Source of the DNA: Escherichia coli
GTDB taxonomy: Bacteria > Pseudomonadota > Gammaproteobacteria > Enterobacterales > Enterobacteriaceae
Strand: one strand, 5' to 3'
Assembly: GCF_030013205.1 (NCBI RefSeq)
Contig: NZ_CP122648.1
DNA: 64,000 nucleotides
Positions 31,201-37,200 of the stretch are shown here, in pieces. The position numbers were made by a program. Every line of letters starts with the position of its first letter. The stretch's first letter is position 1.

Positions 31201-34200
31201 ACAATATCACCAACTACGGCAGACACTTTATCCAGCTCAATTGAATAGGTGAAGGCACCTGTACCAGCACTCATGATGATGTAGTACCTGGAGGGGTCAA
31301 GCCTTGGTTCTATTGTTAAAGTCCCAGCTGCTGCCACAGTGTGGTCGAGAAAGGTTCTCACCTGGAGGCTTGTATTTTGTGGAAACCTCACCCTTGCCCT
31401 GTTGAAAGCGGAATCCATCACTGCGTAAAGTGGGCGAACGTTGTTTCTGTAGGATCTAACCAGAACATCACTACCGTGGAAGTCGTTGCTTTGTGATCCA
31501 GAAAGTGAGTGAACTACCTCGACCTGGTTAATTGTCCCCTCTCCGACATAGCAGTCAGGGCTATTAACCACAAAATCGACGAACCTGATGTTTTGCGCAA
31601 AGTATGAGTTCAGGCGGAATGTGCTGTTTGTCGAGTTAACTACTGACTGAGCATTTGTGATTGAGTTGCCGACGATTGCGTGAATAGAGTTGATAGTCAC
31701 TTCCTGGCAGTCAACCAGAAGCACCGCATCGTAAACAAGGTCAGTGGCAAATCCATCACTTTTATAGACTTCAATGTTTCCGATTTGCAGGGATGGCCTG
31801 TTTCTGGCTCGTACTCCGTTTTGCTTAACGTTGACGTGTACGTTATCGATAAATCCACCAGGCTCGCTGGCTGGGTTGGTTAGGTCGATTCCAACAAATG
31901 CCCCAAGCCCTTCGCTGTCCTTGACAACAAACCCTTCAACGCCGTCACTCAGTTCGACAAACTTCCACCAGTTGTTTGTGTTGAATCTGATGTCTACACC
32001 TACGTTACCTCGAACGGACTTCATCTTAACGGCCACGCACTGGAATTGCGTACCTTCAACCTGCTGCACGTTATAGCTGCCGTATCCAGTGACATGCACT
32101 GAGCCGCTAAAAGCGTCGCCAATCAGCATGCCATTTACCCACGAATACTGTAGCACCGTCAGGTCATCACGCCCCTGTTGAGGACCGAAATGCGCTCCTA
32201 ATTTGAACTTCGCCCGGTGCGCAGTGAACATTTCCTCCCTGAGTGGAGTAAGAATACCGTACCGACCATTTCCGTTTTCCAGGCGAATCATGAATTTTCC
32301 GATGTCGGTTTCTACCTGGGAATAACTGGACTCCGGGTAGCTAACGGCCAGACCTACGGTCGATGCTGAGTCAGCATCCTTCACGCATAACTGGGTTTCT
32401 GTCCCAGCCGTATAAATTTTCACGCCATAGGGAACGGTTACGCACGCCGTTAGTGCGGAATCTCCTGTATGGTAGTTATCCATATCCAGAGAAACACCAT
32501 TTGTAGGGCTCACCAGATATTTTCCTGCTGGCCAATAGAGTACCTTAGCTCCGCAATTGGACCAGCGGTTTAGGGCAAGAGTGTCATCTGCAATACCATC
32601 TCCCTTTGCTCCGAAGTGGTAAGGGGTAAGGAGATAGGTGTTGTGCTGATGTTGAGTAATAGGTACAGAATCAGCATATGGCTGTTTAACAATAACAAGC
32701 GCATCTCCTAGGCCAGTGTCAGGGTTTAATAATTGCTGTCGCAACTGATCCGGGTCATACTTCAGCACATTAGGAAAATAGAACTGCTGCACACCGTATG
32801 CATCATAAACAGCCATCGAATGGCCTTGCACAGTTACGAACTTGGCAATCTGTCCGTTATATACCGGGTAACCAGCCGCATTAATGATGATTGGTTGCGA
32901 AACAGGAACATGAGAACCGTCTTCGTTCTCTATATAAACCTGAATCTGGTTTTCAGGATTTACAGGGTCAGTGTCAATTTTACCGATATAAATTTTGCCA
33001 TTGGCTACGGCTTTAAAAGAACGCGCCATAGTGAAAAGTTGCGAAGGCATCGATACGATCACATTGGCTGTAATGTCTGTCATTTAATTTGCTCCAGATA
33101 CAATGAATCGCCGCAGCGTGGCCACGGTGAATTTTGGGCATAAAAAAACCCAGCCGAAGCTGGGTCGTTGCGTTGGTTATCTGTCAGTAGTTATGTACTG
33201 AAGGAGGTAATTCTTTATTCTTAAGTCTCATCCATGCAGAAAGATTCGTTGGTCCGCCTGGCTCATTGATATCAACATCTCGTGTGTGGTTGATTAAAAC
33301 GTCTCTCGCCATTCCGATAACATACGAGAATTCATGACCGTAGTCGTAGCATCTGCCGGAATAGTTCGATTGAATTTGTTTTAGCGCCGGATACAGTTCG
33401 CGGAATAATGCCTGTGAGCGGTTGGCATAATCCCATAACCATACAAGGCTGTTTGCTTCTTTTGCAGAAAGCTCGTTGGTTTTCTTCTCTTGTTTGCCAA
33501 TGAACTCACCTTCAAGTGGAACTCGAGCTGCAAGTGATAGTGCTTCGGTAAACTGCTCCTCACTGATTTCTTTGTACGAACATCCAAAATGGGATTTCAG
33601 TGACGACCACATGGTGATCATCGCCTTAGCCTGTTTTTCTTTTGGCAGAGACTGACCGCGACTCATGACGAGTTGTTTAATGGCTTCCTGCTGTTCAGTG
33701 GTGATTTTACCCGGCAACGCCTTTTTAGCTTTGCGTGGGTTAACTACATGGCCTTTAGTCCAGTATTCGTAGAGCACATCGTCACACTCTTCCTGATACT
33801 GGATTACCTTGTCGCGGATTTCAGGGCGTACTTTGTTAGGGCTAATGGTTTGCAGCCAACCTGCAAGTTTGCGAAGTGCCAAACAAATAATCTCACGGCG
33901 CTGTTCATCACCTGAAAGCTGCATTGTGATTTTCACAATGGAGGTTTTAAACCGCTGCTTCATTTTCGTAAACTGTGAAGCCCAATCCATACCCATACCT
34001 TCAACGATAGGTTTCATTGGGGTGTACGGCTCACCGTTGTGATTGACGACATAAAGCTCTGCGCCGTGGAATGGCACGTTGATAGTAGATACTGCTGTTG
34101 CTATACTTTTCATGTCAGTTTTTCCTCAAAATTTACTGGCGATTTAAGCCCGAGCTACTCGCAATAGCTTGGGCTTTACTCATTCTGGACAAACAATTCC

Positions 34201-37200
34201 ATCCTTAGCTACTGACTCCTTTAGTCTCCTCAATACCTCATTACTGAACGACCGATCATCCTTTTTCGCGGACTGCTCCAAAGCCTTTTCCAGCCATTCT
34301 GGCATCCTTAATGTCTTAACTTTCATTTTTGCTCCTTTGTATGTGGTACGCATACATAGTATTTAGGTACGCATTGATAGTCAATAGATACCTACATATC
34401 CTGTGGTAAAAAATTATTCAGGATGCGCCGATGTCTGATCGTAAGTACAAAAACCCTCAAGTGAATCTGAGGCTTCCTGTAGAGATAAAGGAACGTCTTA
34501 TTGAACTGGCTGAGGCTAATTCTCGTTCATTAAATGCTGAGATGGTCGCAGCACTTGAAGCATGGACCGAAAAAAACAAACACATTCAAGCACTAGATCT
34601 TGCAACTATAGCATCGCGACTGATAGAGCTTGAGCATGATGTTGAGAAGTTAAAATGCATGCATGGCAATGGTGAAAAATGAAACGTATCGCTATCCTAT
34701 TGCTCCTGTGTCTCTCGAGCATAGCTAACGCAGAAACAAAATCAGACGATAGCAGTTTTGATGAAATACAAGGCCTCATGATAGCTTCGAAAATGGCTGG
34801 TATGTGTGGTGCAATCAAACAAATGGCAATATTCCAAGAATCTACAAACATGCCGGGTGGGAATGAATTCTTGCAGAGATTCCTTACTACAGAGCAAGCA
34901 AGGCTTGGGATGACTCCGCAGCAATTTCTTGAAGCATGTCAGAAATCAATCTCTATTTATACCACCTATTACAATATGAGCTCTGAGAAAAAATAGACTA
35001 GGATTTCAACAACTTCCGCGTCCCTGAGTAATTCTGTCGCGGATTTGCTTCTTACGGTGATTTAAGCTGGAGAGTTTGGCTTCTGCTTCTGATATTTGCG
35101 CATCCAGATCTTTAAGTTCAAGCTCTGAAAGTCGCTGGTCAAGCAGGGTTTGGTTTAACTCAATGTTGTTCAGACGTTCTTCTATAGTCATATTGTTACC
35201 TTAGTGGGAGATTAGTATGATTTCTGCTATTTTATCGGTGCTGCTAGCGTCATTATTCATCGGAGTGGTGTTGATCTCCCCGATGCCAATAATATCAATA
35301 TTATTCATCTTGATGATCGGCTGGTTGTGGCTTAAAAAGGCAAGAAACGATTATTTTTTATCCATAAGAGATAAGCAATTAGAGCTTTTCCGCTTGGGGT
35401 ACACTGGCGACTTGCCATTCTTAACATACCAAAAAAAGTAATAATCAAGCCGGTTCACTCCGGCTTTTTGATATGTCGCTCGCAGAACTCAACAAGCCTG
35501 CTCATTAAGTAGCAGTAAGTCTCGTTGGCTCTTCCTGGTTCAACATCAACACCTACCCTTGAGCAGATATCGAATGCCATGTGAGCGCACTCATGGGCAA
35601 TAGTAGATAGTTTGCCATTGAACACGCCTATCACATGCAAAACACCATTCTCGCTACTCATTGTATGAGACGCTCCGTTGGCGTCCGAGTCATGCACGTC
35701 AACGCCAAGTTTTTGATGCAGGCGTTGCCATTCTGGAAAGTCTCTACAAAACACAATTGTACCGCTCTCAAAGAGCGGAACGAGCATCTTTGGTACGTTT
35801 CCAATGTTAACTTTTTTCATGGTATCCTGCGCAAAACTAAGGAGGTTGGTGTGAAGAAAAAATTTGTAAACGTTGCAAAGTGCGCAATTTTTATATTTTT
35901 TATGACCTTTTACGGATTTAGTGCCGGAGAAGGTTTCGATCGTGATGCCAATGCATTCAGTTTCTTTTGTCTGTCTATAGTGGTCATAATTGTATGGGTG
36001 GAATTAAAGCAAACATTGTTTCATGTGCTAGGGAAATAACCATCCATGGCTTTCCGTTACTTCTGGTTATCATCACTGTTCATCCAGTACATGATGCCTA
36101 GCCTTGATATGGTTTTCTTATCTGATTCTGGAAGTGAGTTGTAAAACGAGCGCCAAGCAGAAGAGCGTCTTACAGTTGTATCAACGATGCTTTCTGGTGC
36201 TTGTTTTACTGCCAGCCTTGCTGCTTTCTGGAATTCTGGTGAGCTAATTAGCTTTTCTGCAGATTCAATTGATTCAGCGCCGCCCATCGCCCTGATTTTG
36301 CTGGCGACTTTTGCCCCAATTTCTGACCCAGCAACAGCACCTACTGCACTGAACGGTCCTGACACAGTTGAACCAACCGCAGTGCCAATGCGTTGGGCAT
36401 GGTTAGCAACAAATTCATTTGCCGCAGTGACGCGATTAAACCGTTTGACGAACTCGTTTAGTCTTCCTGTAGTTATCTCGTAAGATTTTGCGTCTTTGAT
36501 AGCCTTTGCGACCTTATATACATCGTTCAGACCTGACATAGTCTCTTTTGGTAAATGTCGGGCAAGATTGCGCATCTGCCCGTTTGCTAACATGTTTTGA
36601 TACCAGTCAGCAAACCCTGCAGGATTAAAATCAGCGCCACGTTTTCCGTTCGAAAGCATATCCCGAAGACCTGTTCCCAGTAGCTCGGTTCTTAGCTTCC
36701 TGGACGGCGTGTTTTGCATCAATTCACGAAATCCTTTGGCATCGCCTTTCGACATTGCCTGTAGTGCTGTAGTTGCTTTGCGAGAAACATCACCGTTCAG
36801 CGTTCTGCCAGTTAGATTAATCATTTGCTCTTCCATGCTTTTTCGCATCTGAACAAGCCTCTGAGCAACTTCAAAATCACGTAATGCATTTGTCTCTGAC
36901 AGCGCCGCCTTTTGATCATCGGCGAGCGAACCGTAAAGCCTCGATAAAGCAGCGCGATCAGCATCTTTATATGGTCCAGAATTCTTATGAAGTGCATCAC
37001 CAACAAGTCGTCGTTGCTTATTGAGATTTGCATAAGTTAATGCGCCGTTCTTGCCTGGATTAATTGCCCGAAAGACTCTCTTTTCAATAGGGTCAAGGTT
37101 TTTCATCCCGCCAAGATCTTCTGCCACCTGTTTGAGCATTGACCTTGTTGATGGCGCATCAATTTTTGCACCTGCAGGCATCGCCTTTTCAACATTGCGA

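Follow-up and report, generated by a model that had tools for sequence, protein, structure and literature searches.

The window examined here is a stretch of 64,000 nucleotides from Escherichia coli (NCBI RefSeq assembly GCF_030013205.1, contig NZ_CP122648.1), and the subject of this analysis is a small regulatory cassette in it, in which a mnt-like gene diverges from an arc-ant pair. In a late operon of P22-like make-up, the cassette is flanked by the last injection gene (gp16-like) and by the tailspike gene (Table 1). Homologues of gp7 and gp20, followed by a 754-aa open reading frame (ORF) in the gp16 position, lie upstream of it. All three ORFs that a preliminary description of this DNA had called Arc-, Mnt- and Ant-like were found where it had placed them, and the mnt / arc-ant / tailspike order is that of the annotated P22 record (BK000583, which lists mnt, overlapping Pant and Pmnt with Oarc and Omnt, arc, sar, ant, a terminator and tailspike gene 9), the cassette running the opposite way in the window. 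We put at roughly 90% the probability that the region is a complete P22-type secondary-immunity (immI) cassette, mnt-arc-sar-ant, in its usual place. As a system it is textbook material, with its genes present in existing annotation, and the feature as such is already known.

Table 1. Features of the immI region: feature, position in the window, strand, and basis of the assignment
Tailspike gene, P22-type head-binding N-terminus	31011-33083	minus	ORF; RefSeq 'phage head-binding domain-containing protein'; P22 layout
Intrinsic terminator-like hairpin and T-run	33147-33166	minus	18 nt past the ant stop codon
ant, intact antirepressor, 309 aa	33184-34113	minus	Pfam, identity to P22 Ant, PHROG
Psar-like promoter	34079-34107	plus	within the first ant codons, antisense to ant
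Putative sar-type antisense RNA, ~67 nt	34114-34180	plus	Rfam RF00262, fold, homologues, compensatory pairs
arc-like gene, 48 aa, ribbon-helix-helix (RHH) repressor, first gene of the arc-ant operon	34180-34326	minus	Pfam Arc, hhalign, selection, RefSeq
Candidate operator A, 17-bp imperfect palindrome GTATGTGGTACGCATAC	34339-34355	none	over the predicted Pant start
Two tandem 21-bp repeats, GGTACGCAT in each	34345-34386	none	candidate repressor subsites
Pant-like promoter TTGACT-17-TACTAT, for arc-ant	34356-34384	minus	promoter scan
39-bp imperfect palindrome, candidate operator B	34360-34398	none	repeat scan
Pmnt-like promoter TTGATA-17-TATCCT, for mnt	34374-34402	plus	promoter scan
mnt-like gene, 83 aa, N-terminal RHH domain and C-terminal tail	34431-34682	plus	Pfam Arc, 1mnt, RefSeq WP_001283828.1 ('Arc family DNA-binding protein')
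105-aa ORF, signal-peptide-like N-terminus	34679-34996	plus	ORF; phrog_19844, of unknown function

The likeness to P22 immI (Sauer et al. 1983; GenBank X01916, BK000583) extends from gene order and relative orientation to the sizes of the products: Mnt has 83 aa in both, Arc 53 aa in P22 and 48 aa in the window, and Ant 300 and 309 aa, respectively. Also common to the two are the site between gene 16 and the tailspike gene and, by prediction in the window, divergent promoters in an intergenic region of about 100 bp, an antisense RNA whose promoter lies within ant and whose terminator falls at the stop codon of arc, and a terminator after ant. The neighbours on the mnt side are orf59a and sieA in P22 and the 105-aa ORF here.

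The Arc-, Mnt- and Ant-like proteins

The Arc-, Mnt- and Ant-like assignments of the preliminary description are upheld by Pfam, by matches to solved structures, by profile comparison, by PHROG and by identity to P22 Ant. The antirepressor carries both P22 Ant domains (P22_AR_N, 152 bits; P22_AR_C, 104 bits), is 58% identical to P22 Ant from end to end (E = 2e-123), with most of the identity in the C-terminal third, and matches the PHROG family 'anti-repressor Ant' (1e-97). The hairpin past its gene, an 8-pair stem with 5 GC pairs followed by TTTTTAT, stands at the place equivalent to that of the P22 'ant terminator'.

The 83-aa protein scores 40.2 bits against Pfam Arc, and its best match in the PDB is the Mnt repressor itself (1mnt, E = 4.5e-5). 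It shares its total length with P22 Mnt and 42% identity over the N-terminal 36 aa; its C-terminal half, where P22 Mnt has a tetramerisation helix, is variable among relatives and shows no similarity to P22 Mnt that could be detected. In the Mnt-like and Arc-like families alike, the DNA-reading N-terminal strands are nearly invariant (PQVNLR(L/M)P and MKVKTLRMPE, respectively) and the C-terminal parts vary. PHROG 795 and 2685, and several phage records (phage SEN22, 2640-2897, for example), name the Mnt-like family 'partition protein ATPase', a label inapplicable to an RHH protein of 83 aa, and a misannotation that has been passed on.

The 48-aa product of the arc-like gene (MKVKTLRMPEWLEKALEQSAKKDDRSFSNEVLRRLKESVAKDGIVCPE) begins at an ATG preceded at 5 nt by a good Shine-Dalgarno sequence, AAGGAG. 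It exceeds the cut-off of Pfam Arc (PF03869; 25.1 bits, cut-off 20.4), and its PDB matches are a single-chain Arc (1u9p), AmrZ and Arc itself. The 1u9p match improves from E = 0.0027 with the single sequence to 1.2e-4 with a family profile, and hhalign places the Arc-like family on residues 11-50 of P22 Arc (E = 2.9e-5, 30% identity) and aligns it with the Mnt-like family at 93% probability. AmrZ, the best full-domain match among solved structures (E = 0.002-0.01), is a chromosomal RHH regulator of the Arc/MetJ superfamily from Pseudomonas, with an unrelated context, and the likeness is at the level of the fold or domain only.

The 48-codon frame is under purifying selection and is a real gene, more than a product of chance. 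This is shown by comparison with three relatives that diverge from the window by 9-13% at the nucleotide level: synonymous and non-synonymous differences number 14 and 0, and 15 and 0, in the prophages of E. coli Z1323CEC0001 and TW10590, and 17 and 2 in phage SEN22, for a total of 46 against 2. The two E. coli prophages differ from the window by about 9% of their DNA here, yet encode an identical 48-aa protein. The frame and its length persist, with the N-terminus MKVKTLRMPE-LEK unchanged, in 26 protein clusters that reach down to 60% identity, and in related prophages and phages the gene always lies beside a divergent Arc-domain gene and an antirepressor gene.

According to the preliminary description this ORF was unlisted on account of its size. 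That does not hold for the public annotation, where it is entered as an 'Arc family DNA-binding protein' (RefSeq WP_021528598.1); in the mechanical ORF list it appears as an extended version of 57 aa. We rejected the start of that longer version (ATG 34353), which falls downstream of the predicted Pant -10 box but ahead of the predicted transcript start, and has no Shine-Dalgarno sequence; the homologues are almost all 48 aa long and begin MKVKT. Very short repressor genes such as arc fall out of length-limited ORF tracks, and the value of the observation is mainly one of annotation hygiene.

The control region and the putative antisense RNA

Promoters are predicted at all three places where P22 has Psar, Pant and Pmnt, and the divergent Pant and Pmnt that the preliminary description had proposed to look for both fall in the arc-mnt intergenic region (34327-34430). 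All 8 loci compared have TTGAC at the Pant -35 position, and the -10 box, TACTAT or TAATAT, hardly varies. Of 8 diverse loci, 7 have the 17-bp palindrome unchanged and the remaining one (L017) has it with one change; in Z1323 and TW10590 it is a perfect 7+3+7 palindrome. The tandem 21-bp repeats are 76% identical and each contains a conserved GGTACGCAT, itself containing GCGTACC, one copy lying over the Pant start and the other between the Pant -35 and -10 boxes; they are candidate repressor subsites, two helical turns apart. The 39-bp palindrome (18-nt arms, 78% complementary) has its centre where the -35 hexamers of Pant and Pmnt abut, and its mnt-proximal arm is only partly conserved in distant loci.

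The control block is almost invariant among seven E. coli, Salmonella and CUS-3 sequences, and the flanking coding DNA diverges. Even in five distant loci (from Yersinia, Citrobacter koseri, Symbiopectobacterium and two metagenomic or uncharacterised samples), with Arc proteins 63-81% identical, the segment from the Pant -35 box through the end of the 17-mer is still nearly invariant. In our alignment, the register of Pmnt in the distant loci also reads as a -10 box (TACTAT, TACATT or TACTCT), and we kept Pmnt at its predicted position because this -10-like box recurs at the same register. A Pmnt interdigitated as in P22, with its -35 box over the Pant -10 box, was rejected, having by our reading only 3 of 6 matches per hexamer. 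Pairs of TAGA boxes like those of P22 Oarc, which would suit the Q-N-R strand of the Mnt-like protein, were likewise sought and discarded, our reading of the intergenic region giving a single TAGA and no convincing pair. Judged by where they lie and how long they are, the 17-mer is comparable to P22 Omnt and the repeat copy between the Pant -35 and -10 boxes to Oarc.

Between arc and ant a sar-type antisense RNA, overlooked in the preliminary description, is predicted on the plus strand. The match to the Rfam sar model is full-length (29.3 bits, E = 0.004), and the predicted fold consists of a 5' hairpin and a 12-bp terminator stem (-25.9 kcal/mol, z = -5.5 relative to shuffled sequences), the terminator hairpin abutting the arc stop codon. 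As read directly, the sequence is complementary to the ribosome-binding site (Shine-Dalgarno region) of ant. Homologous positions elsewhere give RF00262 scores of 98 bits (P22), 85 (UTI89), 56 (Symbiopectobacterium), 54 (C. koseri), 32 (SEN22) and 29 (Z1323), and an alignment of 8 sequences contains compensatory double changes in 4 of the 12 terminator pairs; no sar was detected in L013 and L019, two loci where arc and ant overlap. The Psar-like promoter (TTGATA-17-TATACT, with TG ahead of the -10 box) has 10 of 12 matches, its TGcTATACT box is invariant in the window, Z1323, TW10590, SEN22 and P22, and its place is equivalent to that of the annotated P22 Psar. A second Rfam match, to BASRCI414 inside ant (16 bits, E = 0.7), was taken as chance.

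Two further features touch this region. On the late-operon strand, a terminator-like hairpin and T-run (34455-34472, minus) fall within the 5' end of mnt; late transcripts reading through into arc-ant and the tailspike gene could be attenuated there, or the hairpin could be a by-product of the conserved coding sequence. The 105-aa ORF downstream of mnt (N-terminus MKRIAILLLLCLSSIANA; no Pfam match; PHROG 19844) overlaps the mnt stop codon by 4 bp and is therefore probably co-transcribed with mnt and expressed from the prophage.

Weighing the immI assignment

Several observations weigh against the immI assignment or limit its reach. The 48-aa protein is only about 30% identical to P22 Arc, whose 6-residue N-terminal arm it lacks, and its single-sequence match to Arc itself in the PDB is weak (E = 0.4). 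An AlphaFold2 model of the monomer (predicted local distance difference test, pLDDT, 65) has an extended N-terminus and helices at 10-22 and 29-41 but no confident RHH fold, a single-chain Arc-linker-Arc model built from a paired alignment is uninformative (pLDDT 46), and a Foldseek comparison of the 48-aa model with the PDB gave no match. Since structure prediction gave no confident fold, the assignment of this protein to the RHH fold, in which an N-terminal beta-strand and two helices build an intertwined dimer, rests on sequence profiles; the low-confidence helices are in register, after a 6-residue offset, with what we take to be the secondary-structure elements of P22 Arc. The predicted -35 hexamers stand back to back with transcript starts, expected near 34349 and 34409, about 60 bp apart, whereas the P22 promoters interdigitate, and the candidate operators share no sequence with P22 Oarc or Omnt (GCGTACC repeats here, TAGA boxes or AGGTCCAC in P22), which makes the assignment of operators by analogy uncertain. 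The sar match lies below the Rfam gathering score (29.3 against 43 bits). The prophage is defective, and the cassette may have no consequence in this strain; nor did we find in the literature any experiment on this cassette variant.

Among the alternatives, the one that survives best retains the cassette and divides the labour differently from P22: the 48-aa protein would occupy both GCGTACC repeats as the main repressor of Pant, and the Mnt-like protein would act mainly at the Pmnt-proximal arm. The Mnt-like strand PQVNLRLP indeed matches the P22 Arc strand PQFNLRWP at the positions that we take to face the DNA, with the Q-N-R that presumably makes the base contacts of P22 Arc, and the Arc-like strand has V-T-R there. 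One 9-bp motif occurs at both the 'Omnt-like' and the 'Oarc-like' position, and the promoter geometry is unlike that of P22. We nevertheless think such a division of labour unlikely, as in length and location the 17-bp palindrome at the Pant start parallels P22 Omnt, and our reading of the sequence gave no clear TAGA-box pair like that of P22 Oarc.

Far less probable is a toxin-antitoxin antitoxin or a partition-type pair that merely happens to lie beside ant. RHH domains are common to antitoxins and ParG/TraY, there are weak Pfam matches to TraY and to FitA-like RHH proteins, and the 'partition protein ATPase' label of PHROGs and the SEN22 record points the same way. However, there is no adjacent toxin or ParA gene, the best solved relative of the Mnt-like protein is P22 Mnt, and the predicted sar RNA would target the ribosome-binding site of an antirepressor gene that always comes next after arc; it is this gene context, with ant downstream of arc in the window and in 8 related loci, that led us to rule the reading out.

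The least probable is that the 48-codon ORF, which is short, is a chance frame without a protein product, Pant and ant being separated by a long leader that lacks arc, as might be supposed from the CUS-3 GenBank record, where nothing is annotated at the arc position, and from a 2008 comparison that judged arc absent from the related ant regions of CUS-3 and HS-1, which must then control ant differently (PMC2629481); against it stand the excess of synonymous differences, the Shine-Dalgarno sequence, the Pfam Arc score, the clusters with their invariant N-terminus, and the 46-aa Arc-family ORF of this lineage that is present in both CUS-3 (L002, 6765-6899) and UTI89 (L009, 1389-1529) and is annotated in the RefSeq record of the latter.

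We return to the immI assignment for what the cassette would do. In P22, Mnt holds Pant off in the lysogen, Arc autoregulates arc-ant after a burst, sar blocks the translation of Ant, and Ant inactivates C2-type repressors (PMC2629481, PMC8022706). By homology with P22 immI, from which every step is taken, including which repeat each repressor would bind, the 83-aa Mnt-like repressor made from Pmnt would bind an operator overlapping Pant and keep the arc-ant operon off. Should Pant fire, the 48-aa Arc-like repressor would be made first and would shut the promoter region again, so that Ant would be made only in a brief burst. The RNA of about 67 nt from the promoter at the start of ant would pair with the ant ribosome-binding site and block translation, and the Ant that escaped would bind and inactivate prophage repressors of the C2/cI type.

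Distribution of the cassette and the state of the prophage

Among the closest known systems is phage SEN22 (NC_028696), where genes 18-20 correspond to the cassette: its Arc is 96% identical and annotated as 'Arc-like repressor', its control region and sar are almost the same as the window's, and its ant is interrupted by a transposon. The P22-like prophages CUS-3, UTI89 and that of O104:H4 have the first 10 Arc residues, the operator and promoter block and the beginning of Mnt in common with the window, the DNA being about 89-91% identical. The rest of their Arc (46 aa) and the arc-ant spacer differ from those of the window, and CUS-3 and UTI89 have two tandem Mnt-like genes.

The control region was found in about 145 of 5426 complete E. 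coli genomes, about 34 of which have the whole arc-to-mnt segment of the type seen in the window. The remaining 110 or so share only the first 10-14 arc codons, the operators and the start of mnt (34286-34440), again at about 89-91% DNA identity. As the rest of arc differs while its start, the operators and the start of mnt are shared, this pattern indicates a recombination junction inside arc, holding the DNA-reading strands and the operators together as one specificity module.

The triad of a divergent Arc-domain gene, a 48-aa arc and an antirepressor gene does not occur solely in P22-like phages, recurring in Yersinia, Citrobacter, Symbiopectobacterium and metagenomic phages with neighbours of podovirus, siphovirus and myovirus type in the distant loci. 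In C. koseri (L015) the cassette lies between tape-measure and minor-tail genes, and in L013, a sequencing-run contig whose 48-aa protein carries a Yersinia enterocolitica name, beside Dit-like and sheath-initiator genes; both are tail operons of phages unlike P22.

The prophage in the window measures about 20 kb and is inserted between ybhB and ybhC, in the gal-bio interval, at the lambda attachment site (attλ). Over a segment of 21 kb (30500-51500) the window shows 100% identity with ETEC4079, an enterotoxigenic E. coli (ETEC) of porcine origin from Belgium. The prophage retains the small and large terminase, portal, scaffold, coat, needle and ejection protein genes, immI, the tailspike gene, xis and int. 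At the deletion junction (49255-49900), Rz/Rz1 fragments are directly followed by the excisionase and integrase genes, and the entire early region (immC, replication, antitermination, holin, endolysin and most of the lysis genes) is therefore deleted. The preliminary description had remarked on the lack of a c2/cI-type repressor in this prophage; none is annotated within the window, and the deletion of the early region is the cause.

Other traces of decay were seen in the same prophage. About 20 bp past the coat gene (41839-43092) comes an Sf6-type tail-needle-knob gene (40867-41817), with no gp4 or gp10 homologue between the two; related prophages have a 'packaged DNA stabilization protein gp10', and the gap is probably a second deletion in the virion genes. 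In the sister strain ETEC4068 (L003), an 11-kb stretch (38157-49492) is replaced by about 4 kb of DNA with IS2 copies and gene fragments; one remnant is thus seen at two stages of decay, with immI and the tailspike gene retained in both. Farther off, at about 2002-4014 (minus strand) in the dinG-rhlE interval, RefSeq has a 'type III effector' gene and two hypothetical genes in the near-identical ETEC4068, which look like an accessory insertion unrelated to the cassette.

As the prophage lacks an immC repressor of its own, nothing in cis is a cognate target of the cassette, and its effects, if any, would fall on other lambdoid phages, resident or incoming. An effect of Ant on co-resident lambdoid prophages, as the preliminary description had proposed, is plausible by analogy, since the phage L, lambda and 21 repressors are reported targets of P22 Ant (PMC3121763, citing Susskind & Botstein 1975). 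Derepression of the intact Ant might lead to the induction of other lambdoid prophages in this porcine ETEC strain, although this is speculation. It is also conceivable, though unlikely, that the cassette represents a distinct immI specificity class wired unlike P22, with back-to-back promoters, GCGTACC subsites 21 bp apart and Q-N-R on the Mnt-like strand, moving as a self-contained unit into tail operons of podovirus, siphovirus and myovirus type. Where it survives in a defective prophage like this one, the cassette could still set the induction threshold of other resident lambdoid prophages, and could neutralise the Ant burst of incoming phages with the same immI.

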